This document shows positions 1,871 to 35,402 of a stretch of 64,000 nucleotides of DNA, one piece after another. How positions within the stretch are numbered: the stretch's first letter is position 1; each line of letters starts with the position of its first letter. A model generated the notes under the pieces. That model saw only the letters and a list, made by a program, of their open reading frames with translations, did no database searches and was not told where the DNA came from. The stretch lies in the sequence record KT321315.1. One strand, 5' to 3'. The DNA is from Enterobacter phage phiEap-3. The position numbers and the translations under genes were made by a program.

Positions 1871-2167
1871 TTATTTCAGTTTCTTTCCGGTTTTGAGTTC
1901 ATATTCTAACTCACGAACTTTGATTCGTAAAGTCATTAAACATACCTGGTTCTGACTGTAAAGGTACTGGGTGATAACTTTGGTTTTCAACTTCTCATCG
2001 ACTTTGGAATCTTTGAGCCAATCAGACATCATCTGATACGTTGGGAGGTGTTCGCACTTCTCATCGTCTGACATCGCATCATACGTTGCTTTGTCCATCG
2101 GAGGCGGTTCCTCGAACGCGAGAGCGGGGGTTGCGAGAAGACTAAGTGCAAGTAGTAGATATTTCAT
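1871..2167 (-). CDS. secreted/periplasmic hypothetical protein (signal peptide MKYLLLALSLLATPALA)
   Basis: The ORF-track start at 2242 reads through a PeSL-like hairpin. The internal ATG at 2167 has an RBS (gaggaa) and a typical signal peptide. Confidence 0.5.
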   Translation of the reverse strand: MKYLLLALSLLATPALAFEEPPPMDKATYDAMSDDEKCEHLPTYQMMSDWLKDSKVDEKLKTKVITQYLYSQNQVCLMTLRIKVRELEYELKTGKKLK

Positions 2168-2240
2168 AATGTATTCCTCATTGTTTTCGATAGAACCAAT
2201 ATAGCAAAAAGCCCCGACCGAAGTCAAGGGCTTTTTCATC
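2165..2240 (-). repeat. PeSL-like cassette: terminator hairpin + extended -10 (TGCTATATT) + conserved leader (tcgaaaacaatgaggaa) + ATG
   Basis: Hairpin aagccccgaccgaagtcaagggctt, then ttttGCTATATTgg on the minus strand. The same architecture recurs at 12093, 18493, 29220, 30915 and 35336. Confidence 0.6.
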
Positions 2241-2523
2241 AATGCAAGAAAGATTTCACGTACTGTTCGATCTTTTCACGACATGTATCAACTGAGGTAC
2301 TTTCCGCAATTACGGCATGACATAACGCCTCACCGCCGACCCAGAAACTCATCATGTACTGAATATCACGACCTTCCATTTCTTTTTGATGCGCTTTGAT
2401 TCGATCGAAAGCGTTTTCGATTGTTTCAGTAGCAGTAAGCATTTCGGATTCCCCGTCAACCTCCGCCAGTTCCCCATCGATCATTTCGCTTTCGACTTCT
2501 TCCCAGTATACTATCGTTATCAT
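2239..2523 (-). CDS. hypothetical acidic protein (94 aa)
   Basis: ORF in the minus-strand array. Confidence 0.4.
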   Translation of the reverse strand: MITIVYWEEVESEMIDGELAEVDGESEMLTATETIENAFDRIKAHQKEMEGRDIQYMMSFWVGGEALCHAVIAESTSVDTCREKIEQYVKSFLH

Positions 2524-2538
2524 GCATTACCCCAGTGG

Positions 2539-3009
2539 TTAACCGTCGTAATCCCCGCCACAATTCACATCACCTTCAATGAACAGTTCGCGGTTATCAC
2601 GTAATAAATTATACTTTCTTTCGAGTTCAGGCCCGAACGCGTCGGCGTCGTCATACCAGGAATAGTTATAACATCCGGCTTCATCGTCATAATCTGGTTC
2701 ATCGCCGCGTTCATTGAAGTGAACAATTTTGATATCGTCCATCCCCAGTTCTTTCAACTTATCCCAGATATACGAAATCTCAACGCTATGGGAACCGAAC
2801 GCTTCCAGTGAGATCGTACCGTCGCTATCGACTTGAGGAACACCCCATTTCGAACGAGTATCATCGGTGATCATATCTATTAATGACTCAATATTATTCT
2901 CACCGTAGATATCAGCAACTTCCTTTTCTTTACCAGGACGAACCAGCCCGATCCCGATAATAAAGCTACTGCTTGAGCTATTGCTCACAAACCCAGAACG
3001 AATTTTCAT
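2539..3009 (-). CDS. hypothetical protein, paralog A of the MKIRSGFVSNSSSSSF N-terminal family (156 aa)
   Basis: Its first 17 codons are nearly identical at nucleotide level to ORF 6392..6907. The remainder is unrelated and acidic. Confidence 0.5.
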   Translation of the reverse strand: MKIRSGFVSNSSSSSFIIGIGLVRPGKEKEVADIYGENNIESLIDMITDDTRSKWGVPQVDSDGTISLEAFGSHSVEISYIWDKLKELGMDDIKIVHFNERGDEPDYDDEAGCYNYSWYDDADAFGPELERKYNLLRDNRELFIEGDVNCGGDYDG

Positions 3010-3160
3010 CGCATCACCATATTACCAATCATGAATAGAGGGATTAACGCGAAGACGATACCCCATAGAATGACCTTATCTTCACGACGGTCGCACCCAT
3101 GATAGATAACACCTCCAGCGAAAACCAATACGACAACTGAAACGAACGCGAATAAAGAAA

Positions 3161-3811
3161 TCATTTGCGGGTATCCATTCTCATAGAAACTTCTTTCAGG
3201 ATCTTATTCAGATCGTGAAGCGCATCTTTTACGTTACCTTCATTATAGGTAAGCATATCCTGGTAAAGCCCTTTCAAGCAACGATTGATAACATATGCTT
3301 TTTCAGAAGGTAACATTGTACCAGAACGATTGTAATCTCTGAAAATGTCCATCATCGTGCCGTTGTTGCCAGATAATGACGGGTTGAAGTTAACCATACC
3401 GGACATCAAACTATCAATATACACAACGGTTGTGTTATCAGAACGATACGCGCCACCAACTTTAAACCAGTTGCTGAACACATACGGAGATTCCCGCACT
3501 TCGCTCAAATCGGTTCCGATTTCATCGATGTTTACACGAATGTTGTTAAAATACACCGATTCATCAATAGAACCAGGACGCCATACGATAGCACCGTTGT
3601 TATTTTTGAATCCGACTACATCAACCTGCCAGCCGTTATCTGTTAACCGGACATCATCAACGACGATGAAATCAGGTAGCTGTGAATGAAAGCCGATGTT
3701 TTCAGGACGGGAATTACGAAACCCATCACGATTGGAGAAATAAAGGATGTCACCTTGATTCAGTTCGCATATATTCATAAGATTTTTAAAGTCCAATTCA
3801 AGTAATTCCAC
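3161..3811 (-). CDS. hypothetical protein (216 aa) immediately downstream of the VWA gene
   Basis: Long ORF; its true start may be an internal Met (MNICELN...). Confidence 0.45.
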   Translation of the reverse strand: MELLELDFKNLMNICELNQGDILYFSNRDGFRNSRPENIGFHSQLPDFIVVDDVRLTDNGWQVDVVGFKNNNGAIVWRPGSIDESVYFNNIRVNIDEIGTDLSEVRESPYVFSNWFKVGGAYRSDNTTVVYIDSLMSGMVNFNPSLSGNNGTMMDIFRDYNRSGTMLPSEKAYVINRCLKGLYQDMLTYNEGNVKDALHDLNKILKEVSMRMDTRK

Positions 3812-3847
3812 AAGTCACCTCAAAGCCCCCTTTCGGGGGCAAATTCA

Positions 3848-6071: not shown

Positions 6072-6392
6072 TCATTTATAGGTAAATTTGATTAAAATTT
6101 CGTTTACTTTTTTGCTAATAATATCTAATGCATCATCGCATCCAAACTTACTACTCAACAATGAAACAAAATCATCCATCGTTGTTGTTTGAGACTCGCC
6201 AACGTCAAAAGACAGAGCGTAGGCAACAGGATTTTTAATCCTTACGATTTGAATAGTATACTCATTCAGGTCAAACCGTTCAAGATATTTTCGCAAAGAA
6301 AATAAATCAATCGGTACTGGTAGAGTTTGACTAAACGTTATTTCTTCCCCCAGTTGATAGGGGGGCATTTTTACACAGATTTCGTATTCCAT
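6072..6392 (-). CDS. hypothetical protein (106 aa)
   Basis: ORF; its stop overlaps the start of the upstream gene (6392). Confidence 0.4.
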   Translation of the reverse strand: MEYEICVKMPPYQLGEEITFSQTLPVPIDLFSLRKYLERFDLNEYTIQIVRIKNPVAYALSFDVGESQTTTMDDFVSLLSSKFGCDDALDIISKKVNEILIKFTYK

Positions 6393-6907
6393 CAGTGATG
6401 ACTCGTCATAGTGTGTTCCAGGTTACGGAAAATTTGCCCGTGTTCAAGCTGGGATTGAAATTCTCCGCATTCATCAGAGTAAGTAAATTCATAAATGAAT
6501 ACACCGTTCTGATTGCCAAATTTAGCGTTGTACTCTTCATACAGCCACATCTTGATCAGAGCGTCTTTCTCTTCTGTTTCCAGATCATACCAGTCACGCC
6601 CATCATAAGCAAGTGCAATTTGAGGATTAGACCGATATCGAGTTTCGGCGTTATCTTCGGTTTCCCATTCATAACGCTTATCATCATAGTATGATTCGAA
6701 ACCATCACCCATATGACCGCCCAGGTCGCGGTGTACTTGCTGTACAACTTCTTCCGCTGTCGGGCAAGTCATCCAGCTATAACCACAGTTAGGAACACAA
6801 TCACCCATCATTTCGCGGAGATTGTTGATATCAGTCGGATCCTTCGGGAACCGTACAATAAAGCTACTTGATGAACTATTGCTCACAAAACCAGAACGGA
6901 TTTTCAT
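6392..6907 (-). CDS. hypothetical protein, paralog B of the MKIRSGFVSNSSSSSF N-terminal family (171 aa)
   Basis: Shares an N-terminal 16-17 aa (about 46 of 50 nt identical) with ORF 2539..3009. Good RBS (gaggaaatcaaATG). Confidence 0.5.
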   Translation of the reverse strand: MKIRSGFVSNSSSSSFIVRFPKDPTDINNLREMMGDCVPNCGYSWMTCPTAEEVVQQVHRDLGGHMGDGFESYYDDKRYEWETEDNAETRYRSNPQIALAYDGRDWYDLETEEKDALIKMWLYEEYNAKFGNQNGVFIYEFTYSDECGEFQSQLEHGQIFRNLEHTMTSHH

Positions 6908-7862: not shown

Positions 7863-8141
7863 TCAATGTCCGAACACACCACGAATAGACTCTGCGAATG
7901 CATACAGTTCAGGATTTTTAGCTTTCACTGTTTCGATTTGCTCCAGAATGTAATCTGGTTTGTATTTCGCACCGAACCAGCAGTAAGAGAAAGAGCGATC
8001 CCACATGAACACGTTATAGTATTCACCGTTGCGAACTTCAACCATCACATAACCAGGATTAGAACCCAGCGGATAATCTTTCAGAAGATTGAATTTCGCG
8101 CCAGCACCAGTACATCCGTTAAACAGGTCATTAAAAGTCAT
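7863..8141 (-). CDS. hypothetical protein (92 aa)
   Basis: ORF with a leader resembling the conserved cgaaacgaaac leader motif. Confidence 0.45.
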   Translation of the reverse strand: MTFNDLFNGCTGAGAKFNLLKDYPLGSNPGYVMVEVRNGEYYNVFMWDRSFSYCWFGAKYKPDYILEQIETVKAKNPELYAFAESIRGVFGH

Positions 8142-8199
8142 GGTATGTTCCTTTTGTCAGTTTCGTTTCAACAAGGTCACTATACTATTCTTCTTTAGC

Positions 8200-9111
8200 C
8201 TATGCAAGCGCTTTTTTGATTTGTTTTGCAATTGCTTCGATCACCGGAACAGATACAGAGTTACCCGCTTGTTTGTACGCCTGTGTTTTGCTCTTATGCA
8301 TCTTGAATGAATCCGGAAATCCTTGCAACCGGAAACACTCGCGAGGTGATAACATTCGAGGGTTCTTACCTTCCTGCAATACCAGACATTGAACACCATC
8401 CTTATAGTATTGGGCTGTTATCGTCCCAGTACACACAGAATCAACTGTAACGGCCTGATAGCCAAACCCCTTACCGTTTGCCTTGTTTCGTTCTTTACGC
8501 TCTCTAAAGCCCTTCCAGGCACGATCTGATATGGTGTATTGATCATTATCCGGTTCGAGAATGTCGCCTACCCTTGTTGGGGTACGTGGAGGAATAGGAA
8601 AACTAAAGAACACCGGATCGCGAAAGCAGACAATAAACACACGCTCTCTTCGTTGAGGCAATCCAAAATCTTTTGTATTCATTACCTGATAATGGATATC
8701 GTATCCTTCGTCCTGTAACAGCCTGTAGATGGTTTTAAACGTGTTTCCCTTGTCATGAGTTAATAGCTGGGGAACATTCTCAAAGAACAGCACAGAGGGC
8801 TTTTTAGCCCGTATAATGCGGAGTATTTCAAAGATGATAGTACCGCGAGGATCTAACATGCCCTGTTTTAACCCTGCTTTACTAAACGCCTGACAAGGAA
8901 ACCCCGCCAACAGGATATCGTGATCAGGCACATCGTTTTCATCAATGGCGAATATATCACCCTGAATATTTTCATCGCCCCAGTTATCAGCATATGTTTG
9001 TTGTGCATGTTTATCGATTTCAGACGTTAAAAGGCATTCGACCCCGCCGAATGCCTTATCGAAACCGAGCCTCACGCCACCAACACCAGCGCAAAGGTCA
9101 ATTATTTTCAT
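8200..9111 (-). CDS. DNA (cytosine-5)-methyltransferase
   Basis: Canonical m5C MTase motifs: motif I DLCAGVGG, motif IV GFPCQAFS (catalytic PC), motif VI ENVPQLL, motif VIII QRRERVF, and a C-terminal GNSVSVPV. Confidence 0.9.
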   Translation of the reverse strand: MKIIDLCAGVGGVRLGFDKAFGGVECLLTSEIDKHAQQTYADNWGDENIQGDIFAIDENDVPDHDILLAGFPCQAFSKAGLKQGMLDPRGTIIFEILRIIRAKKPSVLFFENVPQLLTHDKGNTFKTIYRLLQDEGYDIHYQVMNTKDFGLPQRRERVFIVCFRDPVFFSFPIPPRTPTRVGDILEPDNDQYTISDRAWKGFRERKERNKANGKGFGYQAVTVDSVCTGTITAQYYKDGVQCLVLQEGKNPRMLSPRECFRLQGFPDSFKMHKSKTQAYKQAGNSVSVPVIEAIAKQIKKALA

Positions 9112-11826: not shown

Positions 11827-12092
11827 TTCCTCACAGTTTCAAATTCTTCATCAGATTTCCAATACACGTTAAAATTACGACAATCATGTTCGGCTGTCAA
11901 CGTATATTTTTCATTTGTTTTCTCATCGGTGATAACCATAGTTTCATTATCGATTGAGTTAACACCATAAACGAAAACATTCTCACCGCGTTTGTTTAAA
12001 AACGCATCACCCTTTTCAATCAACTGCCAACAGGCAACAGGCAACCCACCTGGACAAATCGGACGGGTAACAAGACAATAGGGATGTTTCAT
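11823..12092 (-). CDS. hypothetical Cys-containing protein (about 90 aa from MKHPYCLV)
   Basis: The track start (12122) reads into a PeSL hairpin. The internal ATG at 12092 sits after the conserved leader. Confidence 0.4.
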   Translation of the reverse strand: MKHPYCLVTRPICPGGLPVACWQLIEKGDAFLNKRGENVFVYGVNSIDNETMVITDEKTNEKYTLTAEHDCRNFNVYWKSDEEFETVRK

Positions 12093-12160
12093 AATAAGCC
12101 TCTTTTGTTTCTGTAGGCCCAATATAGCAAAAGCCCCTGACCTAAGTCAAGGGCTTTGTT
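12093..12160 (-). repeat. PeSL-like cassette (hairpin aagcccctgacctaagtcaagggctt + TGCTATATTGG + leader)
   Basis: Same hairpin family and extended -10 as at 2165..2240. Confidence 0.6.
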
Positions 12161-13231
12161 TTAAATTCCGGTAAATGCTACGATGATTTGATAATGATCA
12201 TCGAAGAATAGATCCCGCATCGCGATCACTTCGTGCATCGGTAGCCAGAACGCGTCTGCTGCATCATCAGAGCCGCCCATAATACGAGGCAATGAACCAT
12301 CGTTATTAGGTTCGAGCTTGATATATTGTGCTACAGTCGGTTTTGAGAAGTACACCGAACGTTTCGGATGATCGAACAGCATCGAATTACGGATAGAACC
12401 ACGAATAACCTTTTCTGGTACTTTAATTCGTACTTCTTCCAGCAATTCACGGATCGCACAATCAAGGAACGTTTCGTTACCGTTTTTGTGTCCACCAGGA
12501 AGCGCTAACGCATCTTTACCAGGCGCAAACTTACGACGGATTACTAACACGTGGTTATTACATACGACCACTGAGTCAGCCGTGCAACAGTTCAGAGAAT
12601 CCGGATACGGATATTTTTTGAACTTGTCAATCTCTCGTTGCCAGTGTGCATCTTCATGGGACAAACGCTGGAATTCTTTTGTTTGTGTCCATTCATCGAT
12701 AAAGGAAACCGTAGTGCTAGGCGCATATTTTAACAAATCTTCGTCCCAGCCTTCATGGTGTTCCCAGATAATTTTGCGTAAATTGGTCGAGGACAGATCC
12801 TGATCTCCAACCTTCACAGGTTCAACCGGAATATGATTCCATCCGAATGCTTTAAGCCAGTAAGAATCTTTGTCTTTTTCGTATCCGACGATCGCAATTC
12901 GATCATTTCGAGTTTCATCGATTGCCATACGAACGCGGGATTTCCATTTTTCCTCGTTATAGAGGTAATCTGGAATGTGCGCGAATTTGATTCTGGCTGC
13001 ATCTTCAACATCAAGTTTGCAGATAGACCAGCGAGTGATCATTGCTTGACGCTGTTTAGCGGTCAATGGGTTTAATGTGTTCGGATATGCATAAGCAGAA
13101 CCGATCAGAATGTAAACCGTATTAGCAACAGCAAGGGCTTCCCTTACCATTTTCTCATGACCATAGTGAAAAGGTTGAAAACGTCCAATTACTACAGCTT
13201 TATCATATTTGTGTTTCATAACGTGCTCCAC
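12161..13231 (-). CDS. bifunctional NMN adenylyltransferase / Nudix hydrolase (NadM-Nudix, NatV-like)
   Basis: N-terminus VVIGRFQPFHYGH (the HxGH NMNAT motif of NadM/NadR type). C-terminal Nudix box GGHKNGNETFLDCAIRELLEEV. Confidence 0.8.
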   Translation of the reverse strand: MEHVMKHKYDKAVVIGRFQPFHYGHEKMVREALAVANTVYILIGSAYAYPNTLNPLTAKQRQAMITRWSICKLDVEDAARIKFAHIPDYLYNEEKWKSRVRMAIDETRNDRIAIVGYEKDKDSYWLKAFGWNHIPVEPVKVGDQDLSSTNLRKIIWEHHEGWDEDLLKYAPSTTVSFIDEWTQTKEFQRLSHEDAHWQREIDKFKKYPYPDSLNCCTADSVVVCNNHVLVIRRKFAPGKDALALPGGHKNGNETFLDCAIRELLEEVRIKVPEKVIRGSIRNSMLFDHPKRSVYFSKPTVAQYIKLEPNNDGSLPRIMGGSDDAADAFWLPMHEVIAMRDLFFDDHYQIIVAFTGI

Positions 13232-13357
13232 GTTTAAAGGTTAATCATAAAACAGACGCAATTATCAACACACCAAACAATCCACCAATGAAACCAAAGA
13301 ATAGTGAAATGAGTATAGTCAGTACGATCTGTTTTATGTTCATTATAGTATTCTCGT

Positions 13358-13383
13358 TTTAGATGTCAAGCCCCCAAAGAGGG
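13358..13383 (-). terminator. GC hairpin (agccccc-aaag-agggggct) after the SPFH gene
   Basis: Hairpin adjacent to the stop at 13396. The T-run on the transcribed strand is weak. Confidence 0.35.
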
Positions 13384-13395
13384 GGCTTTAAAACA

Positions 13396-15146: not shown

Positions 15147-15164
15147 TTTTTGCTGTAAAGTCAA

Positions 15165-18349: not shown

Positions 18350-18492
18350 TGTACCCATTCCCCGTTTTTGTCAATGTACATGATCCAATCAGCAACCGCC
18401 CAATGGGAAGTATTGCCTTTCGGAGTCGCTACGATGTAGGAACCAGCTTTAAACAGTACGCGTTTAGTTTCGTTCAGGATCAGGTCGCTCAT
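18346..18492 (-). CDS. small hypothetical protein (48 aa, MSDLILNETKRVLFKAGSYIVATPKGNTSHWAVADWIMYIDKNGEWVQ)
   Basis: Not in the ORF track. Follows a PeSL cassette with an RBS (gagagga). TGA/ATG overlap with the next gene. Confidence 0.3.
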   Translation of the reverse strand: MSDLILNETKRVLFKAGSYIVATPKGNTSHWAVADWIMYIDKNGEWVQ

Positions 18493-18560
18493 AATGTATT
18501 CCTCTCAATTAGATGCATCTATAATAAAAAAGCCCCAGACCGAAGTCAAGGGCTTTTTGT
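18493..18560 (-). repeat. PeSL-like cassette (hairpin aagccccagaccgaagtcaagggctt + T-run + TTATTATAG + leader)
   Basis: Same hairpin family as at 2208 and 12130. Confidence 0.55.
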
Positions 18561-19201
18561 CAAATGATTTGTTTTTCTTCTAACAGCTTCGCGGTTGTAT
18601 TAACCATACGAGCATAATCACGGGCTTCTTTCTTTGTATACTTGAAACCAGCGTTATAGCTCGCCAGCGCCTTTTTCAAGTCGCCTTTGTGGTAATCAAG
18701 CCAGTACTCCAGTTCATAGATCGCATACTTCGATCCACCTTGAAGAGTTTCGAGCTTTTTGATTACTACGCGTTTAGGATATGACTTATCCATTCGTGCG
18801 CTGGCGCTCCTTGCGGTAACTTGCCAGCATCCATAAGCGTGATGGCCTTTTTTACCTTTACCGACATTCTCACATGCGCGAGACTCGATCCAGGCAATAG
18901 CCGCTAAATGATAGCCTAAACGTTTAGCCTTATCTTTTTCTACAGGTTTTGCAGTCTTCAAATCATAGTTGTGTCCAACTCGATAAGCATACTCCAGAAC
19001 CTCTTTCTGCTTCGGTGTGATGTTATCCAAATCCTTGATGTAGGATGGAGAATTTTTGTTTGCCGGAGGCTTTACAGTAGCCTTTTGTAAAGGCAATTGA
19101 TGAGTAGGCAAATCCGCAATGAAATCCCCTAGCGGATCCGTCGCAGCGTTGCCAGAAAAAGAGCACAAGAAAATGCTGGCAGCAATAATAATTTTCTTCA
19201 T
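18560..19201 (-). CDS. secreted lytic transglycosylase (SLT domain)
   Basis: Signal peptide MKKIIIAASIFLCSFSGNA. SLT catalytic region AIAWIESRA...GCWQV (ES motif). Confidence 0.65.
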   Translation of the reverse strand: MKKIIIAASIFLCSFSGNAATDPLGDFIADLPTHQLPLQKATVKPPANKNSPSYIKDLDNITPKQKEVLEYAYRVGHNYDLKTAKPVEKDKAKRLGYHLAAIAWIESRACENVGKGKKGHHAYGCWQVTARSASARMDKSYPKRVVIKKLETLQGGSKYAIYELEYWLDYHKGDLKKALASYNAGFKYTKKEARDYARMVNTTAKLLEEKQII

Positions 19202-19265
19202 TTTAATACCTATGTTGCAAAAAGAGGGGCAATAATACACCCCACTTTATATTTATGCAACTATT

Positions 19266-19820
19266 TTAGATAGTTTTCGCGTCACGTAGTTTATCAGCGA
19301 TAAACTCAGCAATGTTATAATTTGAAATAGCCTTGTTAGGATCGTATAGTGCAGTGATTTCATCTAACGATACCATAACGGCATGTTTAAAGTAGACACT
19401 CCAGCTAGTAGTAAGGATCTCGCTGTTGTCAAACCCACAGTTAGGGCTGAACAACGCGCGGTATTTGTACCCACTGTATTTCGTCAGACGATTCGTGCTG
19501 TGCGCATCACTGGTGATCAGAAAAGTTCCCTGGTGGGTTTCCACAACGAAAAAGTATCCGAGGCGTTCTTTGTTGTCCAGCATCTTTTCAAACTTGCGAT
19601 CGGTTTCTTCGCGAACAATACGAGAAGTCAGCATTTCCAACACTTTATCATATTCAGGCCAATCATTCTCGATCACGATCGCATCAAATGGTTTCTTACC
19701 ATTAATCCCGCGCCCGATTTCGATTTTCATGCAAATTTCGTTGAACGTTTTTAAATCTTCTGGCGTCAGTTCTTTAAGATCGCTCAATTTTGCTACATAA
19801 TAACGTTTTTCTAGTTTCAT
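19266..19820 (-). CDS. hypothetical protein (184 aa)
   Basis: ORF. Confidence 0.45.
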   Translation of the reverse strand: MKLEKRYYVAKLSDLKELTPEDLKTFNEICMKIEIGRGINGKKPFDAIVIENDWPEYDKVLEMLTSRIVREETDRKFEKMLDNKERLGYFFVVETHQGTFLITSDAHSTNRLTKYSGYKYRALFSPNCGFDNSEILTTSWSVYFKHAVMVSLDEITALYDPNKAISNYNIAEFIADKLRDAKTI

Positions 19821-23237: not shown

Positions 23238-23501
23238 TTAGAGTTCACAGCAACGGCACACACCGTATTTTGTAAATGGAGCATCACCGCTAACGTAGGC
23301 CCAGAAATCACATGCTTCTTCGGCAGTATCGAAGATTGCGGCATCATAGAACCCGTGGGCTTCGTTACCGTTCTCATCGATGAAAACCGGAGTCCAGATA
23401 TTAGGATTGAAGCAATCGTCAACAACAACCCAACCTTCTTTAGCTTTCATTGCTTCTTTGTTGACTTCGATGTGAGCTAAGATTTCGTTCATGATGTCCA
23501 T
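23238..23501 (-). CDS. hypothetical protein, C-terminal CRCC (87 aa)
   Basis: ORF. Confidence 0.4.
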   Translation of the reverse strand: MDIMNEILAHIEVNKEAMKAKEGWVVVDDCFNPNIWTPVFIDENGNEAHGFYDAAIFDTAEEACDFWAYVSGDAPFTKYGVCRCCEL

Positions 23502-23570
23502 TTTTCTCTCCTAAAGTGTGTTTCGTTTCGACAGGGCTATAGTCTCATAACCCCGTATCTACGTCAACAC

Positions 23571-23831
23571 TTATTTGAAGCGAATTGTGCTATTTTTGAA
23601 AAATAATCCAGAGCACACCGCACCTTCAATTTTCACCCCTGTAGGGCTTTTAGCAACGAACCCTGTTGCGTAGGTGTCTTTCTCATCACATGCAAACCAG
23701 GCGTGGCCTGTGTACGTGATATCGGTAAACCCGTTAGCAGTCAGAATACGTTCGGCTTCTTTCTCATCGGTGCATCCGGATTGTGCTAAAACGACAATAA
23801 CGACTAACACCAAAGCAATAATATATTTCAT
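23571..23831 (-). CDS. putative lipoprotein (lipobox LAQSGC)
   Basis: Signal peptide MKYIIALVLVVIVVLAQSG|C. 86 aa. Could be an o-spanin or a superinfection-exclusion lipoprotein; not resolved. Confidence 0.5.
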   Translation of the reverse strand: MKYIIALVLVVIVVLAQSGCTDEKEAERILTANGFTDITYTGHAWFACDEKDTYATGFVAKSPTGVKIEGAVCSGLFFKNSTIRFK

Positions 23832-26935: not shown

Positions 26936-27031
26936 TAGAACAATTTTCAGTGGAGTAGTTCAACAGCGTTACCGTTTTATTCTTTTCCAAAAATACTCGT
27001 TTGTCAATCTCTGTTTTGATTACGTGTTCCA

Positions 27032-27289: not shown

Positions 27290-27293
27290 AACA

Positions 27294-27470
27294 ACCTCAC
27301 TTCATTTTAGCAATGTATTTGTCAATACTCATGTAAACACGGGTATACATTACAGCAGCGTGACGGTCGAAGAATCTTTCCCACCATTCCAGCGCTTCCG
27401 CTTTAGAAGGTTTCGCGCCCAGGGCATCATGCATTTTGGCTTTGATTTCTGTTACTGTCAACATGTCCAT
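27294..27470 (-). CDS. small hypothetical protein (58 aa)
   Basis: Hand-translated (MDMLTVTEIKAKMHDALGAK...). Follows the conserved ccgaaacgaaacgg leader. Not in the ORF track. Confidence 0.3.
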
Positions 27471-27534
27471 TTTTTATCCCCGTTTCGTTTCGGTATGGGT
27501 GTAAGATAACATCATCCTACACCCAGCGCAAGAG

Positions 27535-27705
27535 TTATTTGTACTCCATGAAGAATTTTATTGCTTCTTCTGGCGTCATACCGTCAGAGAAAAATCCAAA
27601 GAAAGTACAGTGATGGTCGTTGTATGAAATATTCAAAGGAGATAGTAAACTTCGAACATGTTCAGCCCACAAACGATATTTTTTGCTGAATGGTTGATCT
27701 CTCAT
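27535..27705 (-). CDS. small protein (56 aa), SDG[MC]TPE[ED]A family paralog
   Basis: Hand-translated. Shares FFSDGMTPEEAIKFF with LYSDGCTPEDAVCEY of the adjacent ORF 27702..27899. Confidence 0.3.
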   Translation of the reverse strand: MRDQPFSKKYRLWAEHVRSLLSPLNISYNDHHCTFFGFFSDGMTPEEAIKFFMEYK

Positions 27706-27899
27706 TCTTCGTCCCCTTGTGCGTAATATTCACATACTGCATCTTCTGGGGTGCAACCGTCCGAGTAAAGAGCATACATCAGATCTTCGTCATAATCAGA
27801 AGAACCCAGCATATGTTGAACAGAACGTTTCCATTTATTGTAATCTTTTTCGCCCTGGGTTTCGCTGTTTTCTGATTTAAGCATTTCGTACATGTTCAT
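27702..27899 (-). CDS. small acidic protein (65 aa), SDG[MC]TPE[ED]A family
   Basis: ORF; paralog of the previous. Confidence 0.4.
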   Translation of the reverse strand: MNMYEMLKSENSETQGEKDYNKWKRSVQHMLGSSDYDEDLMYALYSDGCTPEDAVCEYYAQGDEE

Positions 27900-28041
27900 A
27901 GGAATCTCCCGTAGTCGGTTGCTGCATCTTCCGGATCCGCATCCAGTTCGTACAGTTCGCGAGCTAGTGCGCTGGGTTTAATATCGCGCCCTAAGTGGGC
28001 GCTAACATTACGTAGCCATTTCATATAGGGTTCGAATTTGT

Positions 28042-28293
28042 TCATTTTATACGTACCGCGTTAAAAGCCTGGTTCCGGAGATCATACGCTTTTTCAAGCT
28101 GTTCTGTAGTGAACAGAGAACTATCCGAGTTTACCGTGAAACTGCAAATGGTTTTGTTGTCGGCGTTGACTTCTTCAACAACGATATCATAACCCCAAAT
28201 ACCACTTAGTTCACATTTCACGTTACGGTACTTGATATAAACCGCAACAACATCTTCTTTTTTGTAGTTACGGCTTTTGTATAAAATTTCCAT
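28042..28293 (-). CDS. hypothetical protein (83 aa)
   Basis: ORF preceded by the catcgaaacgaagcagag leader. Confidence 0.4.
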   Translation of the reverse strand: MEILYKSRNYKKEDVVAVYIKYRNVKCELSGIWGYDIVVEEVNADNKTICSFTVNSDSSLFTTEQLEKAYDLRNQAFNAVRIK

Positions 28294-28538
28294 TTCAAAC
28301 TCCCTCTGCTTCGTTTCGATGTAGTAACGATACCAAATTCAAAACATGATTGTTTAGCAATTAGTGCTATAACACAAACGAACGTCCATCTGTTATAGAT
28401 CGTTCCAGCGATGAAGCGGTTACTGTAAATTCAGGAAACCAGCACCCAAGATTACTTGACCACCACCATACGTTAACACCATCTGTTTTAAATTCGATGT
28501 TCAGGTAAGTATTGAAAATGTGTTTCATGTTGTTCCCC

Positions 28539-28817
28539 TTATGCCATTTTCTTAGCGATTTTCCAGGAAGTTTTGAACGCCGGAACATCTTCAATATCAA
28601 TCCAGAAACCAGATCCGAAACCATCACTATAGCAAGGGCAACCGTCGCAGTAGTTTTCCCAGGTCATAACTTCACCACCAACAGAAGCACCAGTTTCCAT
28701 AGCACGTAATGCATCTTCAACTTTTTCCAGTTTTTCGGCGTTGTCGTCGTAAATGACAAAGTACCATTTACCGTTGTATTCGTTACCCAGTTTGATTGAT
28801 TCGCGAACAAGTTTCAT
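28539..28817 (-). CDS. hypothetical protein (about 92 aa from MKLVRESIK)
   Basis: An internal ATG follows TGGTATATTAC and the leader acacatagaaacgaaacagac. The track start reads through the promoter. Confidence 0.4.
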   Translation of the reverse strand: MKLVRESIKLGNEYNGKWYFVIYDDNAEKLEKVEDALRAMETGASVGGEVMTWENYCDGCPCYSDGFGSGFWIDIEDVPAFKTSWKIAKKMA

Positions 28818-28886
28818 GATGATTTCCTTTTTGTCTGTTTCGTTTCTATGTGTGTAATATACCACACCCAGATTTTAATGCAACAT

Positions 28887-29219
28887 TTATTTTGCTTCGA
28901 GTTCGATATTTTTCCAGGTTTTCATCGGAACCCCTATCGCATCCCAAAACTTAACATCTTCCGCTGCAATCAGAGTAAAGAAGATCCCAGTTTTCCAGTA
29001 TTTCCCGTTTCTGATTTCGTTTGCGATCTCATTCAACTGGTCACAAAAATGCTCAGTCCAACTAACATCACCATCCCAATGAGAACGTGGGTTGTACAGA
29101 GAAAATATGAAACTATCAATATAAGAAGATTTTCCGGTAGAGACGCCCATCAAAACAGCCAGGATTGTGCGAACTGCATATAAATTCTGAACCTCAACAC
29201 TTCTCGTTTTAATAATCAT
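28887..29219 (-). CDS. hypothetical protein (about 110 aa from MIIKTRSV)
   Basis: The track N-terminus (GFCYIAFIETKQ) is a translation of the PeSL repeat. The internal Met follows the leader. Confidence 0.4.
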   Translation of the reverse strand: MIIKTRSVEVQNLYAVRTILAVLMGVSTGKSSYIDSFIFSLYNPRSHWDGDVSWTEHFCDQLNEIANEIRNGKYWKTGIFFTLIAAEDVKFWDAIGVPMKTWKNIELEAK

Positions 29220-29292
29220 TTCATAATTCCTCTGTTTTGTTTCGATGAATGCAATATAACAAAACCCCTCACCATTGGCAAGGGGTTTTTGC
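29220..29292 (-). repeat. PeSL-like cassette (hairpin aacccctcaccattggcaaggggtt + TTGTTATATTGC + leader cgaaacaaaacagagg)
   Basis: Same architecture as the other cassettes. Confidence 0.55.
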
Positions 29293-29297
29293 AAAAA

Positions 29298-29558
29298 TTA
29301 TCGTTTGATTGGGGTATTATCTATAACCCTTTGAATTTCCGAACGTATCGTAGAATACTGGCACAATTCGGTAAGCGCCCGATCCAGGTGCATCATAGCG
29401 TAAGGAAAATCTTTTCCGCATTTGTCACATCGAGCGTATAAATGTAAATGGATGCGTCCGATCCCATCTACCTGACTATATTTCTGGAATATGTAAGGTT
29501 TTGCACCTCGATAGCCAGTAGCTTCATGCTTACACTCTCGTTTTTTGAACCATGACAT
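29298..29558 (-). CDS. small zinc-finger protein (CKHE...C...CDKCG)
   Basis: 86 aa ORF with Cys pairs. Confidence 0.4.
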   Translation of the reverse strand: MSWFKKRECKHEATGYRGAKPYIFQKYSQVDGIGRIHLHLYARCDKCGKDFPYAMMHLDRALTELCQYSTIRSEIQRVIDNTPIKR

Positions 29559-30133
29559 TAATAATATCCTTGTACGTTGAAGCGGTCACACAACAATTTT
29601 TTTGTTTGGTTAGTATCGCTTTGGATAGAATGCAACATAGCGCTGAACATGTTTAGGTTATTTTGCATCATTTCCGCGCTCATGAGAACTTCCATACGCG
29701 CACGTAAGCGTTTATTTTCTTCTTCCAACTCAACCATACGGTCATATGCTTTGATGCGCTCTAAGGGCATATCAGGACGCTCTTTGAGTACGCGAGCACG
29801 TTCAACCTCACAAGCATGATTTGCTTTCCAGTGGTTCGATTCCGCTTCAAATTTATTAAGGCGGCGGATCTCTTCAACCAGCTTTTTGATCATGTGTGGA
29901 TCCATCATGTCGATGAATTTCATCAGGCAATTGGATTTTGTTTTGTTGTCAGCACCAGACCAAGACGAATTATACGTAACCGTAAACGTGCGGCCCATTT
30001 CATCAACAACCCCGATCTTGTTATCATCGGTGATTGTAGCCGCCCATTTCTCCCGCATGGCTGTACAGGTTCCGCTGGCGACACTATGCAACTTGTTTAA
30101 TGTTGCATCATCAAATACAATTTCATCACTCAT
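29558..30133 (-). CDS. hypothetical protein with C-terminal coiled coil (191 aa)
   Basis: ORF. Confidence 0.45.
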   Translation of the reverse strand: MSDEIVFDDATLNKLHSVASGTCTAMREKWAATITDDNKIGVVDEMGRTFTVTYNSSWSGADNKTKSNCLMKFIDMMDPHMIKKLVEEIRRLNKFEAESNHWKANHACEVERARVLKERPDMPLERIKAYDRMVELEEENKRLRARMEVLMSAEMMQNNLNMFSAMLHSIQSDTNQTKKLLCDRFNVQGYY

Positions 30134-30140
30134 ATATGCC

Positions 30141-30539
30141 TCACATAGATTTCAAAATACGCAAAAGTGCGTTAGTAAAGATATCAGGAACACAACCACC
30201 AAACAACTTATGATTCATCAGCGCTAATTTCATGCTGTGATTTTCAGTATATCGCCCGTTCTGGATCCCCCAGGCAACGACATTACCAGGTTCATGAATA
30301 ACTAAGTTGGTGAGAGTAACGGTCATGCGCTCTTTATCATTGATAGAGAATGAATAGCAGTAACCGGATCCAATGTCGCCATAAAGGTTAAGGTCTTTCA
30401 ATTTCCCTTGCTCATGCAAGCGTTTCATATGAACTGCACATGCATGATTAATGGTCATTTCGTCATCCCTAGCCCAGTCATCAATACCAGAGGTATAACG
30501 AATATTGAAATAGTTAGTCAGTTCATTTGATACGCTCAT
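30141..30539 (-). CDS. hypothetical protein (about 132 aa from MSVSNELTNYF)
   Basis: Internal start chosen to remove a 119-nt overlap with the upstream ORF. Confidence 0.35.
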   Translation of the reverse strand: MSVSNELTNYFNIRYTSGIDDWARDDEMTINHACAVHMKRLHEQGKLKDLNLYGDIGSGYCYSFSINDKERMTVTLTNLVIHEPGNVVAWGIQNGRYTENHSMKLALMNHKLFGGCVPDIFTNALLRILKSM

Positions 30540-30741
30540 TAGAAACCTCACTTTTATAAAATTCTTTACCAGTCCCATTACAGCTACTGCATTTGGGAGA
30601 ACGGTTGCTATCATACCGCCCCGATCCGTTACATGCAACACATTTCCTTAATTTCCAGCCATACACGAACCTCATGTAATGATCGGTTCGTGCGGCCTTG
30701 CGTTCGTGGAAATTCATGCTTTGTAAACCTGAACCAACCAC
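30523..30741 (-). CDS. small CxxCxGxG (DnaJ-type) zinc-finger protein (72 aa)
   Basis: CVACNGSGRY...CSSCNGTGKE. Confidence 0.4.
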   Translation of the reverse strand: MVGSGLQSMNFHERKAARTDHYMRFVYGWKLRKCVACNGSGRYDSNRSPKCSSCNGTGKEFYKSEVSNERIK

Positions 30742-30914
30742 ATTTCGATGTTAGGCGCGTAAGTAACGTTTACCTTATGCATTGTGCGGTATTTGTAAGC
30801 GGCTTTGTACGCATCGAGTTCAGTCGGAACACAGAAAGAGAAACCGTTGTCATAGCGTTCTGCGTTAGAAACTTCACAACCAACTACAGCGGCAATATTT
30901 TTGTTCATGTTCAT
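30714..30914 (-). CDS. hypothetical protein (about 66 aa from MNMNKNIAAV)
   Basis: The track N-terminus reads through the PeSL. The internal Met follows the leader gaaacgaaacagagaaaggaaaacatc. Confidence 0.35.
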   Translation of the reverse strand: MNMNKNIAAVVGCEVSNAERYDNGFSFCVPTELDAYKAAYKYRTMHKVNVTYAPNIEMWLVQVYKA

Positions 30915-30990
30915 GATGTTTTCCTTTCTCTGTTTCGTTTCGATGTGTGTAATATAACAAAGCCCCTGCACGAATGCAAGGGCTTTTTTG
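30915..30990 (-). repeat. PeSL-like cassette (hairpin aagcccctgcacgaatgcaagggctt + TTGTTATATTAC + leader acacatcgaaacgaaacagag)
   Basis: Hairpin identical to the one at 35370..35401. Confidence 0.6.
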
Positions 30991-30991
30991 A

Positions 30992-31906
30992 TTATTTTGG
31001 TAATTTTTCGATGGTTGCTTTCAACTCATTGATTTTATTAAAGAGTTCATCGCTATATTTCATCAACTCACTACGGCGCTTTTCGGCCCACTTGATCAGG
31101 AATTCAGGAGAATCTACACCATACGTGTAACCTTCGGCACTCAGTTGAATACGAGCACGGGAACCATAATCAACAGAACTTTGCTCAATGAGAAACTTAA
31201 CCGCATCAAGCAGGGCTAAATCTTCATGACTTACCATGATTCCTTCTGCCTTTGGAAGATCCACAACTTCATCTTGGATGAGTTCACGGCGGGTTGTTTC
31301 TTCCAGTGTTTCATGATTCTGGATCATCGTTTCAACCGGATCCTTTACCACGACTGGTTTGTTTTCACCTACTTCTTCCAAAAACATCAACATCCATCCA
31401 GGAATTTTAGTCCGGAAAGAACTTTGCACTTCACTGGTGCATGAATTTCCCAGAATGTGGATCGCGTTGCCATGCATATCAACTTTATTGATATAGATAA
31501 CGTTCTGCTGTTCCTGTCGGTTGCTACCATAAGAAAGGAAGCGGCGTAACGATGTGTTATGACCATACTTCCCTAAATCGATTTCAGCCAGGCAATCAAT
31601 GATCCCACGGTTAGAAACCTTGTAGCGCTTACCCTGTTTGAAAAATAACGGTTCTTCCATGTGAGTAGGGTTAAACTCTTCGTAAAGCACATAGAATTCT
31701 TTAGGAATTTTGCGTTGAACCAGATTCAGTTTACAATTATTAGAAGGAACGATAACAGAGTGAATGTTTCCTTCTGTATCACACATAGCTTGCATTACTT
31801 GCGGATAGTAAAGATGGTCTTTCTTGCAAGTATAGCTATGGATACGACTCTGACGTTTTTTGAAGTACCATTTACCAGTTTCAAAAGGCGCTGTTGTAAA
31901 ATTCAT
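30992..31906 (-). CDS. hypothetical protein (304 aa), partner of the DUF262-like gene
   Basis: ORF, ATGA-coupled to 31903..32430. Confidence 0.5.
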   Translation of the reverse strand: MNFTTAPFETGKWYFKKRQSRIHSYTCKKDHLYYPQVMQAMCDTEGNIHSVIVPSNNCKLNLVQRKIPKEFYVLYEEFNPTHMEEPLFFKQGKRYKVSNRGIIDCLAEIDLGKYGHNTSLRRFLSYGSNRQEQQNVIYINKVDMHGNAIHILGNSCTSEVQSSFRTKIPGWMLMFLEEVGENKPVVVKDPVETMIQNHETLEETTRRELIQDEVVDLPKAEGIMVSHEDLALLDAVKFLIEQSSVDYGSRARIQLSAEGYTYGVDSPEFLIKWAEKRRSELMKYSDELFNKINELKATIEKLPK

Positions 31907-33039: not shown

Positions 33040-33040
33040 A

Positions 33041-33842: not shown

Positions 33843-34088
33843 TTATTCACCTTCAAAAGCGTTATCAAATGCTTCAAGTGCTTTGTTAGCGCGAGCACTG
33901 GCTTTTGTCACACCAGCAGAAAGGTTTTCAAAGAAAGTATGTTTCCACACTTCGCGACGACTGGATTCATGTTCCAGAAGGTTTTTGTGATTACCGCGAA
34001 TCTGTTCTTCCATGTTGTAACGGTACAGATCGAGTTCTGTGTTTAATTCCTGTTCTAATGCCTGTGCAAATACTTGTTCAATATTCAT
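33843..34088 (-). CDS. hypothetical helical protein (81 aa)
   Basis: ORF, coupled. Confidence 0.4.
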   Translation of the reverse strand: MNIEQVFAQALEQELNTELDLYRYNMEEQIRGNHKNLLEHESSRREVWKHTFFENLSAGVTKASARANKALEAFDNAFEGE

Positions 34089-34336
34089 TTTGTATAGCCT
34101 ATTTCAGATTTAAGGTTTTCGAGGGTAGAATGATAAACAACATTCCCTTCGTGTCGAGTATACCATACTTTTCCGTTCTGGTTACACTCATTCATTACTT
34201 TTTCATCTAAACCAGGGATCGGCTTCATGCTGGGAGAAAACGCGATAGACATCATTTGTTCCGCACTATCAGCAAACCCACAAGGGAAAACAGATCCAGT
34301 TGGTTTATCAAGATACATCAACTCTACTTTAGCCAT
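34085..34336 (-). CDS. hypothetical protein (about 83 aa from MAKVELMY)
   Basis: Internal start chosen to resolve the overlap with 34329..34622. Confidence 0.35.
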   Translation of the reverse strand: MAKVELMYLDKPTGSVFPCGFADSAEQMMSIAFSPSMKPIPGLDEKVMNECNQNGKVWYTRHEGNVVYHSTLENLKSEIGYTK

Positions 34337-34622
34337 AGATTTCTTCGAAATCCTCACAATCAGGCAAATACGTTTCACAGAAGGTGCAAAGCGTAAAGAA
34401 TGCAGGTTGACGAATACCAGGATTATCCGGTAGATACATCCAGAAGGTGTTAGCAAACACGATGAATGTTTTCAGGTTTTCGGTGGTAATTTCGCTAACA
34501 CCATCATACCCGGATTGATTGATCGCGCGTTGCAGCGGCACCTCATACTGTTCGCAATAGTCGGCATAATGATCGCTTGTTACCAGGCCATTAGCCATTT
34601 TAATCAGATCAACGATTTTCAT
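34329..34622 (-). CDS. hypothetical Cys-containing protein (97 aa)
   Basis: ORF. Confidence 0.4.
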   Translation of the reverse strand: MKIVDLIKMANGLVTSDHYADYCEQYEVPLQRAINQSGYDGVSEITTENLKTFIVFANTFWMYLPDNPGIRQPAFFTLCTFCETYLPDCEDFEEIYG

Positions 34623-35041
34623 GATTTTACATATTCCACTTTAACAGGTTTTGCAACAAATTTATCTTTGGTGCGCCCATGACCATTACACAGGTCACAT
34701 TCTCTGTTGAAATCTTTCATATCTTCGACCCATCCAGAATCTGGCAACCCAGACGGATATGCGTTATAACTAATGGTTTCATAACCTTTTCCGTTGCATT
34801 TCGGGCAAACATGAGGACGTTCCTTTTTAGCAGACTCTACCAGTTCGCGAAGGGTGGTAGAACTACCATAAGCCCGACTCATGTTTTCAAAGTCTTTTAA
34901 AGTCATGCTATAAACATCAATGATGTTATATTTTTTACCGGATGGTTTAGCCATAATATATTTCTCACTTAAAGAATTTTTTGATGAAAGAGATAGCAAG
35001 GCCGATACCAAAGAAAACCCAATATGCTTTACCATCACCAT
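34619..35041 (-). CDS. zinc-finger protein (CPKCNGKGY ... CDLCNGHG) with hydrophobic N-terminus
   Basis: Two CxxCxGxG motifs. Confidence 0.4.
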   Translation of the reverse strand: MVMVKHIGFSLVSALLSLSSKNSLSEKYIMAKPSGKKYNIIDVYSMTLKDFENMSRAYGSSTTLRELVESAKKERPHVCPKCNGKGYETISYNAYPSGLPDSGWVEDMKDFNRECDLCNGHGRTKDKFVAKPVKVEYVKS

Positions 35042-35194
35042 TTGCTAACACATAAACTGCGTTACCGTATGCAAAGATTTCCGCGATGTTCATTAAGTTT
35101 CTCATGATATCCTCCTTTTTCTATATTAAGTATCTTACCATAATATAAACCAAAGTCAACAACAAAGTTTTATCAACCCACTTATCACCAGTCA

Positions 35195-35335
35195 TTAGTA
35201 ATCTCCTACAGGTTGAGACGCCGCAACACTCAGGATCTTGAAAGTGCAATTGTTCCACTCACAATACGTTTTTGCACAGTGAACACTTCCTTTCATAACA
35301 AACCCGTTTGAGAAAATTAACCAGTAAAGTTTCAT
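35195..35335 (-). CDS. small Cys-rich protein (46 aa, MKLYWLIFSNGF...)
   Basis: The internal Met follows a PeSL cassette and an RBS (aaggagg). The track N-terminal extension translates the repeat. Confidence 0.3.
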   Translation of the reverse strand: MKLYWLIFSNGFVMKGSVHCAKTYCEWNNCTFKILSVAASQPVGDY

Positions 35336-35402
35336 GATAGCCTCCTTTGTTTCGACAAGGCCAATATAACAAAGCCCCTGCACGAATGCAAGGGCTTTTT
35401 TC
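35336..35402 (-). repeat. PeSL-like cassette (hairpin aagcccctgcacgaatgcaagggctt + TTGTTATATTGG + leader)
   Basis: Hairpin identical to the one at 30958..30989. Confidence 0.6.

Follow-up and report, generated by a model that had tools for sequence, protein, structure and literature searches.

Repeated PeSL-type cassettes with overlapping predicted terminator and promoter in the early-gene block of the Slopekvirus phage phiEap-3

RESULTS

A minus-strand block of small genes carries six composite cassettes

The DNA analyzed here, a 64,000-nucleotide (nt) stretch of Enterobacter phage phiEap-3 (sequence record KT321315.1; the window), belongs by megablast to the genus Slopekvirus (Straboviridae, T4-like Klebsiella phages), where it has more than 110 close relatives and is ~97% identical to vB_KpnM_M1 (M1); its identity to the RB43 group (Pseudotevenvirus) is ~80%. 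The window contains a minus-strand block of ~85 mostly small and hypothetical genes (positions 1174-38123), which also carries tk, rI, endolysin, phoH, nudE, and dNMP kinase genes and has plus-strand baseplate genes on both sides. This block corresponds to the hyperplastic early region of T4-type phages. All six composite cassettes described below, in which a GC-rich hairpin overlaps a sigma70-like promoter sequence, lie within it, as do five promoters that have only the leader of these cassettes; no cassettes were found among the plus-strand late genes of the window. We interpret the cassettes as regulatory elements of the promoter early stem-loop (PeSL) type.

The composite cassettes are named after the position of the downstream ATG, and the leader-only promoters after p and the ATG position (Table 1). 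The ATGs of the six composite cassettes (2167, 12092, 18492, 29219, 30914, and 35335) fall within 1 to 2 nt of where the initial annotation had located the recurring architecture. Each cassette is 65 to 80 nt long, is on the minus strand between a stop codon and the next ATG, and consists, in order, of an A-tract, a GC-rich hairpin, a T-run, a -10 box, a conserved leader, a Shine-Dalgarno (SD) sequence, and the ATG. The A-tract (A4 to A6) begins 0 to 9 nt after TGA or TAA in all six, and the SD sequence (GAGG, AGGA, or GGAGG) lies 5 to 9 nt before the ATG of an open reading frame (ORF) of 46 to 110 amino acids (aa) that is annotated as hypothetical in relatives. The layout of c30914, for example, reads TAA-tc-AAAAAAGCCCTTGCATtcgTGCAGGGGCTTTGTTATATTacacacaTCGAAACGAAACAGagAAAGGAaaacatcATG.

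The promoter boxes of all six cassettes match sigma70 promoters by sequence (TTGACT, TTGCAT, or TTGCCA, a spacer of 17 to 18 nt, and TATATT or TATTAT). A Mot box (TGCTT) ~12 nt upstream of the -10, the mark of PmSL elements, was not found at these sites, where the upstream hexamers at 17 to 18 nt have the sigma70 geometry. In every composite cassette, the -35 hexamer lies inside the 5' arm and loop of the hairpin, so that the predicted terminator and promoter overlap rather than merely abut; the initial annotation had put the promoter immediately after the hairpin, which applies to the -10 but not to the -35. One stretch of DNA would thereby have several roles: the A-tract would be both outer stem and UP-like element, the -35 would come from the 5' arm, the 3' arm would form the promoter spacer, and the terminator T-run would run into TGnTATATT. 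The extended -10 that had been ascribed to all of the sites is present in five of the six composite cassettes (and in 8 of all 11 cassettes); c18492 has TTTTATTAT, without the TG.

GC-rich hairpins do recur at all six sites, albeit in three sub-families instead of the two originally described, since the hairpin at 29262-29287 (ACCCCTTGCCAATGGTGAGGGGT) is distinct; the hairpin at 2167 is one base shorter than the rest of its sub-family. The second-family hairpin was correctly described as identical at two sites, and the identity is in fact wider, in that c30914 and c35335 share 39 identical nt (30951-30989 and 35363-35401) from the A-tract through TATATT.

These features are those by which Arbiol et al. 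(2010, PMC2839356) defined PeSLs, namely, a sigma70-like early promoter, an AT-rich tract with an upstream stop codon, a G/C-tract stem-loop, and an SD sequence with the ATG of a small ORF. Judged by sequence, each of them is present in the cassettes, as the PeSL match proposed in the initial annotation had implied.

The cassettes resemble each other beyond chance, and their hairpins covary

A search with the hairpin pattern gave 14 matches, counting both strands, compared with 0.06 expected. Similarly, the leader TCGAAACGAAACAG had eight matches at ≤2 mismatches relative to 0.71 expected, and seven of the eight are in minus-strand leaders (8158, 23518, 27480, 28306, 28835, 29232, and 30930). 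A blind repeat search over positions 1 to 40000 returned the cassettes as the three largest direct-repeat families (D1 to D3), ranking them first among dispersed families. In alignments of the 70 nt before the ATG, the mean score among the composite cassettes was +20, whereas comparison with terminator-only intergenic regions gave -14 and comparison with shuffles gave -12 (P = 2e-9, Mann-Whitney). Thus, the claim that these elements are more similar to one another than to unrelated terminators held in this mutual alignment. About nine intergenic regions of the block have a terminator-type hairpin only. Rfam covariance models gave no match at gathering score anywhere in the 64-kb window.

The six hairpins fold at -17 to -20 kcal/mol, with z scores of -4.0 to -5.8, and the sense-strand RNA fold is 2.5 to 5.4 kcal/mol more stable than the antisense fold, because U.G pairs in the stem become C.A mismatches on the other strand. 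To compare stems, we collected 18 distinct hairpin variants from the window, eleven Slopekvirus relatives, and RB43 and tabulated stem pairs from individual RNAfold structures anchored on the TTG. Compensatory double changes occur at three stem positions (GC/CG at the base, C-G/A-T, and C-G/A-T/G-C at positions 4 and 5 of the -35), although the variants are related sequences and cannot be counted as independent events. All 18 variants keep the TTG of the -35, whose partners vary only by wobble (T.A/T.G and G-C/G.T). Such a pattern is the signature expected if a single sequence were to serve as an RNA stem and a -35 box at once.

The leader keeps a fixed distance from the -10

The leader TCGAAACGAAACAG also precedes five ATGs without a hairpin (8141, 23501, 27470, 28293, and 28817), all of which had been named in the initial annotation and are among the matches at ≤2 mismatches. 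Its GAAAC starts exactly 9 nt after the -10 in 9 to 10 of the 11 cassettes, but anywhere from 13 to 27 nt separate it from the ATG, which means that the promoter fixes the position of the leader, at about +3 of the predicted transcript.

Three elements pair a hairpin with a promoter in other registers. Two of them, upstream of 19201 and at 13369, are listed in Table 1. The third, at 15080-15167 on the minus strand upstream of the rI-like gene (15079), has a GAGGC-ttcg-GCCTC hairpin followed by TATAAATA (15108-15115), which is the T4 late-promoter consensus; by its sequence, this element would be a terminator plus a late promoter rather than an early cassette.

Two other identities for the cassettes were considered and rejected. 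They are not late promoters, since the window has just three copies of TATAAATA, a number no higher than chance would give. Nor are they mobile elements resembling miniature inverted-repeat transposable elements or repetitive extragenic palindromes, as no inverted termini besides the hairpin and no target duplications were seen and their positions are conserved in RB43.

TABLE 1 Composite cassettes (c), leader-only promoters (p), and variant elements of the minus-strand block in the window
Element	Span	Strand	Stop codon	Hairpin	ΔG (kcal/mol); z	-35	-10	Leader or SD	ATG	Remark
c2167	2165..2241	-	TGA 2239-2241	2206-2236	-17.0; -4.2	TTGACT 2222-2227, in hairpin	TGcTATATT, 2198-2203	aTCGAAAACAAT; SD GAGGA	2165-2167	Reference copy of repeat family D2
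c12092	12090..12163	-	TAA 12161-12163	12130-12157	-19.9; -5.8	TTGACT 12145-12150	TGcTATATT, 12121-12126		12090-12092	
c18492	18490..18562	-	TGA 18560-18562	18527-18558	-17.7; -5.6	TTGACT 18544-18549	TATTAT, 18521-18526	SD-ATG block GAGGAATACATTATG		TTTTATTAT, without TG
c29219	29217..29300	-		29261-29289	-19.1	TTGCCA 29276-29281	TGtTATATT, 29253-29258	29232-29245	29217-29219	Third hairpin sub-family
c30914	30912..30994	-		30959-30986	-19.3; -5.0	TTGCAT 30974-30979	TGtTATATT, 30951-30956	30930-30943	30912-30914	
c35335	35333..35403	-		35371-35398		TTGCAT 35386-35391	TGtTATATT, 35363-35368	GTCGAAACAAAGGAGG	35333-35335	
p8141	8139..8202	-				TTGCAT	TATAGT	8158-8171		N17 spacer
p23501	23499..23573	-				TTGACG	Weak	23518-23531		
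p27470	27468..27537	-				TTGCGC	TGtTATCTT	27480-27493		N17 spacer
p28293	28291..28369	-					TGgTATCGT (extended)	28306-28319		
p28817	28815..28889	-		None		TTGCAT 28878-28883	TGgTATATT, 28856-28861	28835-28848	28815-28817	frd.1-like gene
Variant	19199..19268	-		Stem GGGGTG/TGCCCC 19226-19243	-13.2; -2.0 (weak)	TTGCAT 19255-19260	TATTAT			N17 spacer; stem encloses -10; then T-run
Variant	13342..13392	-		AAAGCCCCCtctttGGGGGCTT (~13368-13388)	-18.7; -5.2	TTGACA	TATAAT			N16 spacer; perfect promoter at 13342-13369; hairpin directly 5' of it

Three junctions in relatives have both ends in cassettes

We aligned the block to eleven Slopekvirus genomes by dynamic-programming chaining, local BLAST, and three-way alignments, and by our own curation we counted ~34 distinct indel or replacement events. 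Three junctions have both of their ends in cassettes, at homologous positions. In Tauntaun_ER47, a single chimeric cassette has its upstream flank from c35335 and its leader and gene from c30914; ~4.4 kb and ~13 genes are missing, including nudE, and the crossover maps to the 39 nt in which the two cassettes are identical. This junction is present in 1 of 177 records and is therefore a recent deletion. The KLB10 annotation puts nudE inside the c30914-c35335 interval and an Acb1-like gene immediately upstream of c35335. In KLB27, the c30914 hairpin is joined to the p28817 leader, with the crossover within TATATTACACACAT and ~2.1 kb (six genes) missing, again in a single record (1 of 173); c30914 and p28817 match over 28 nt with one mismatch.

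The third junction concerns a 397-nt module that consists of the 110-aa ORF 29219..28887 and the p28817 promoter, between c29219 and p28817. The module is present in the window, M1, Matisse, KP5, and Roth27 and absent from P52_1, Miro, PMBT1, Lemur, Lychee, and Tauntaun, and where it is absent, a chimeric cassette with a c29219-type hairpin and the p28817 leader remains. The p28817 leader and gene stand behind a c29219-type hairpin in Lychee, P52_1, Tauntaun, mtp5, and RB43. Since RB43 lacks the module, the form seen in the window is probably an insertion, and p28817 would be leader-only in the window because this insertion parted the leader of the frd.1-like gene from its original hairpin. 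A comparison of gene presence and absence across related phages, which the initial annotation had suggested, thus yielded two deletions and one polymorphic module that are bounded by cassettes.

Another five events touch a cassette at one end, with c18492, c12092, p27470, and p28293 among the sites involved. At c18492, a 19-nt direct repeat of the SD-ATG block, GAGGAATACATTATGAGCG, flanks an extra 387-nt ORF in Matisse, R2_1, W8-3, and mtp7. A different cassette and an extra 65-aa ORF replace c12092 in all six relatives compared across that part. In Matisse, the p27470 -10, its leader, and a 57-aa ORF are absent, and the shared -35 region appears from the sequence to drive the next gene directly. 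Matisse, Lychee, KLB27, and P52_1 have an indel with a breakpoint at 28322, just 3' of the p28293 -10.

Approximately 26 of the ~34 events are located off the cassettes. Three are homing-endonuclease insertions (at 8208, 21407-21465, and 39281-39312), and the rest are replacements and deletions with 2 to 11 nt of microhomology within or between genes. The homing-endonuclease genes at the first two sites are free-standing genes of relatives that the window does not have. The first insertion is 527 nt long and adjoins p8141. At the second, upstream of phoH, the window has only a 57-nt spacer with a hairpin, and relatives instead have a 538-nt segment with an HNH endonuclease gene; at the third, Earwig has an inserted HNH endonuclease gene together with a 32-nt duplication of the hairpin at that site. 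Earwig also lacks 6.9 kb (24855-31784), with breakpoints inside genes and a 2-nt overlap; the cassettes within the deleted segment were not used.

The cassettes are conserved across two genera

BLAST with the 78-nt c30914 cassette matched 1,558 places in 192 phage records, RB43 included, or ~8 places per genome. Among the Slopekvirus and Pseudotevenvirus matches listed, genomes had 7 to 13 each, and a few other groups had weak matches; neither RB49 nor phi1 was among the 60 matches listed. Under a strict pattern, the complete Slopekvirus genome mtp5 contains 12 copies, all in early blocks, and it has further leader-only sites. At orthologous positions in RB43, the cassettes are 84 to 95% identical to those of the window, compared with 74 to 94% for the 200 nt of flanking coding sequence (CDS), and the RB43 ortholog of c18492 has a compensated stem. 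Given these orthologous positions, the cassettes are old and positionally stable rather than recent arrivals.

The loops of the hairpins at 30959-30986 and 35371-35398 come in two forms, TTCG and TTAG, a one-base difference, and the forms are swapped between loci across phages. At the 30914 locus, TTCG is present in the window and Lychee and TTAG is present in M1, Matisse, KLB10, and KLB27, while TTAG is present at the 35335 locus in Earwig. This swap could reflect either gene conversion between cassettes or a recurrent point change.

The overlapping design was also observed in non-T4-like contigs of IMG/VR (L025, L026/L028, L042/L043, and L047), in the form AAGCCCTTG (-35)...GGGCTTT..TATAAT or TATTAT. 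The search pattern ended in TATWAT and therefore missed the dominant TATATT form. The inner stem of these contigs is complementary even though the pattern did not demand complementarity. One 64-kb contig has two copies 3.3 kb apart, and two contigs have no close isolate in the phage collection.

Other repeats and spacers of the window

Two 91%-identical hairpins (AAAGCCCCTTCCTTyCGGTTGGGGCTTT; 1138-1170 and 39281-39313) sit between convergent genes at or just past the two ends of the minus-strand early block and are likely bidirectional terminators. The very AT-rich spacer of ~220 nt between divergent genes at 38198-38416 contains ~12 GATC sites and two 31-nt, sigma70-like direct repeats on the plus strand (CTTGAnn...GATCTATAATA; at 38201 and 38318), and it is bracketed by a 29-nt inverted repeat (38169-38197 and 38417-38445). 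Candidate roles for this spacer are a divergent promoter region subject to regulation and an origin-like element. Lastly, a 79-nt direct repeat of 76% identity (family D4; 2931-3009 and 6829-6907) spans the 5' ends of the minus-strand genes 3009..2539 and 6907..6392, which suggests that these genes have paralogous N-termini.

DISCUSSION

A proposed role of the cassettes as insulated units of early-gene expression

We consider it probable, at roughly 85%, that the repeats are PeSL-type composite regulatory cassettes of the Slopekvirus early-gene block. The sequence comparisons themselves establish the overlapping anatomy, its repetition, selection on stem and -35 alike, conservation in another genus, and three recombinant junctions, while the predicted promoter and terminator activities and early timing are extrapolated from experiments on RB49 and phi1 and from the general rules for sigma70 promoters and intrinsic terminators. 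On this interpretation, the hairpin and T-run would act as an intrinsic terminator that ends the upstream transcript, and in the overlapping register, a strong sigma70-type early promoter would allow host RNA polymerase to re-initiate 6 to 9 nt after TATATT. The new transcript would begin with the fixed purine-rich sequence (GAAACGAAAC, 9 nt after the -10), followed by the SD sequence and the ATG. Because the cassette's own transcript would start downstream of the hairpin, the hairpin would form only in RNA arriving from upstream, and each small early gene group would be insulated and then re-started. Since the copies share 14 to 39 nt of identity in direct orientation, they would also serve as substrates for the phage's homologous recombination, whose products would be precise deletions or insertions of whole gene modules that retain a functional chimeric cassette; any mini-circle intermediate in this exchange would be modeled on RB49 and phi1.

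Do the cassettes shuffle genes, or are they ordinary regulatory junctions?

Several results weigh against this interpretation, particularly its recombination component. Positional conservation in RB43 indicates that the cassettes are mostly stable regulatory sites and not frequent movers. The ~26 of 34 events that lie elsewhere involve microhomology or homing-endonuclease genes, and the cassettes make up 11 of ~84 gene junctions, so that the eight events touching a cassette are about what random junctions would give; an overall enrichment of indels at cassettes over other gene junctions (8 of ~34 events, 11 of ~84 junctions) was not demonstrated. Two of the three cassette-to-cassette crossovers have only 6 to 14 nt of perfect identity, near the 2 to 11 nt of the non-cassette events, and only a single assembly shows the Tauntaun junction and another the KLB27 junction, so that assembly collapse is possible. 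With respect to activity, generic scans of the region for sigma70 promoters and terminators gave counts equal to those of shuffles, with no enrichment, and the six sites are distinguished only by their rank. Termination may be only partial, because the U-tracts are either short or broken up (as CUUUGUUAUAUU in the pair of identical copies). A literature search for Slopekvirus transcript 5' or 3' ends gave nothing relevant.

A first alternative is that the cassettes are ordinary, vertically inherited terminator-promoter junctions. Their similarity would then come from common descent and from shared function, that is, a sigma70 consensus and GGGGC-tetraloop-GCCCC terminators, and recombination would be incidental and no commoner than at any short repeat, with the shuffling role overstated. 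Terminator-only GGGGC-type hairpins are indeed common in the block (repeat families D8 and D16), which fits this explanation, as does the retention of cassette positions in a different genus. Identity between cassettes nevertheless extends beyond any consensus, as in the 39 nt shared by copies 4.4 kb apart and the near-identical 28 nt of c30914 and p28817, and the composite cassettes resemble each other far more than they resemble terminator-only regions. Moreover, the three events with both ends in cassettes at homologous positions compare with ~0.5 expected for random junction pairs and are the only class to exceed expectation. We regard ordinary junctions as a rather unlikely explanation. 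Three junctions with crossovers inside cassettes support the modular shuffling proposed in the initial annotation, but about three-quarters of the ~34 indels lie elsewhere: cassettes are one route to plasticity among several, and most plasticity in the block bypasses them.

A second alternative treats the cassettes as actively mobile units, with a phage protein recognizing the GGGG...CCCC hairpin, as a DNA cruciform or single strand, and moving ORF-plus-cassette mini-circles site specifically. Arbiol et al. detected mini-circles by inverse PCR in RB49 and phi1 and speculated about a hairpin-binding protein (PMC2839356); in addition, the 397-nt module lies between two cassette copies, the topology expected of circle integration, and the TTCG/TTAG swap between the 30914 and 35335 loci hints at conversion, although only a single base is involved. 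However, the crossovers that can be located are in the -10/leader part (KLB27 and the 397-nt module) or, in Matisse and others, in the SD-ATG block rather than in the hairpin, and p28817 recombines without having a hairpin at all. The G.U pairs favor an RNA-level hairpin on one strand, and no target duplication was found beyond the cassette homology; no search for a recombinase gene was made. Active mobility is thus highly improbable.

The initial annotation had also warned that ORF calling runs through the cassettes and creates spurious N-terminal extensions with a recurrent peptide. The mechanical ORF list does show this (peptides GFCYIAFIETKQ and GLCYITHIETKQ); the match is looser at 35335 and 2167, c18492 has no such peptide, and deposited annotations such as M1 gp111c also read through a cassette. 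That these mechanical ORFs and several GenBank annotations instead reflect a real shared N-terminal extension, for example, a targeting signal, has a negligible chance of being correct, since the extensions start at TTG or GTG inside a hairpin of -17 to -20 kcal/mol, differ in length (10 to 33 aa) and frame between copies, and are missing from c18492, whereas every cassette ends in a strong SD sequence correctly spaced from its ATG and conservation follows base pairing and promoter hexamers, not codons.

Possible roles of the leader, and implications

Among composite regulatory cassettes of this kind, the fixed leader block raises a separate question. GAAACGAAAC lies 9 nt after the -10 (about +3 to +12) in most Slopekvirus and Pseudotevenvirus early cassettes, and it might constitute a distinct, previously undescribed control element; we consider this unlikely on present sequence evidence, as we do the related option of an actively catalyzed cassette exchange. 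If it is such an element, it could be an initial transcribed sequence optimized for promoter escape, or it could bind an RNA-binding protein or early-gene regulator of the phage through which the whole early regulon is coordinated or shut off. Judging from its fixed position, we suggest that the purine-rich, nearly U-free transcript start AUCGAAACGAAACAGAGAAAGGA may aid promoter escape or provide an unstructured ribosome-loading leader.

A practical consequence is that the numerous deposited CDS whose starts fall within cassettes should be trimmed. More broadly, the cassettes extend the PeSL concept to the Slopekvirus and Pseudotevenvirus branch, whose members are widely used Klebsiella therapy candidates, and they predict the places at which therapeutic phages can lose or swap blocks of accessory genes. 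With more than 100 sequenced relatives, two isolates with precise deletions, and a genus-wide polymorphic module, the evidence goes beyond the original two-genome comparisons; the population-level junctions and the dual-constraint covariation are a useful, incremental addition. The overlapping design would also be a compact natural insulator part.

Comparison with known systems

As a comparison of mechanism only, integron attC cassettes likewise combine small single ORFs, imperfect-palindrome repeats, proposed circles, and insertion that ensures expression. In contrast to them, each cassette here has its own predicted promoter and terminator, and exchange is apparently homology driven; no attC/attI logic is evident, although no integrase search was made.

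The same physical sites have been annotated in KP15/KP27, Matisse, Miro, and the KLB phages, where terminators are marked at orthologous positions and, in KP27, "promoter" and "terminator" are both marked at the c30914 ortholog. Those annotations are separate predictions (in the KP15/KP27 paper, MEME promoters and ARNold terminators only; PMC5219037) and describe neither an overlapping repeated cassette nor a link to indels, nor do they use the term PeSL. A literature search gave no report of PeSLs in Klebsiella phages. RB43 has one mention of "PeSL-like sequences" near g43, as data not shown (Arbiol et al. 2010, PMC2839356).

The PeSL concept was extended to T4/PST and KVP40/nt-1, in which the stem and promoter consensus is particular to the clade and "half" elements lie near indels (Comeau, Arbiol and Krisch 2014, PMC4122927). 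The half or degraded elements of these PeSLs and PmSLs match the leader-only promoters described here, and the same authors noted that non-PeSL mechanisms and homing endonucleases also contribute to variation. In T4/PST and KVP40/nt-1, the stem-loop lies just upstream of the promoter, whereas in our cassettes the two overlap. The promoter here (TTGAC/TTGCA-N17/18-TGnTATATT) is also nearer to sigma70 than the TTTACW of T4, and no Mot-box variants were seen in the cassettes.

The closest counterparts are the PeSLs of RB49 and phi1, which number ~50 copies per genome, mostly in hyperplastic regions, and for which terminator and promoter activities were measured with lacZ reporters (PMC2839356). 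Their stem-loop may lie between the promoter boxes, overlap the -35 or -10, or be located upstream or downstream, giving five positional subclasses, and the mapped crossovers fall within the loop or in the stretch from the -10 to the ATG (PMC2839356). Our cassettes differ from them in having no detectable sequence similarity, as judged from the BLAST matches listed, and in their register, which mostly places the -35 in the 5' arm and loop, whereas the commonest phi1 arrangement is between the boxes or over the -10. They also carry the conserved GAAACGAAAC block, which the published PeSL description does not include, and number ~12 strict copies per genome, compared with ~52 under the broader definition used in the PeSL work. 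The two groups nonetheless share a composite of a sigma70-like promoter and a G/C-tract stem-loop, a stop-bearing AT-rich tract, and the SD sequence and ATG of a small gene of unknown function. In both, copies are dispersed through hyperplastic early regions (dozens in RB49/phi1), the stem-loop may overlap the -35 or fill the spacer, and indels between close relatives are bounded by the elements, with crossovers from the -10 to the ATG or in the stem-loop. The cassettes of the Slopekvirus block are thus PeSL-type elements in a new clade and of a distinct sequence family, in a T4-like phage in which a specialist would expect PeSLs.

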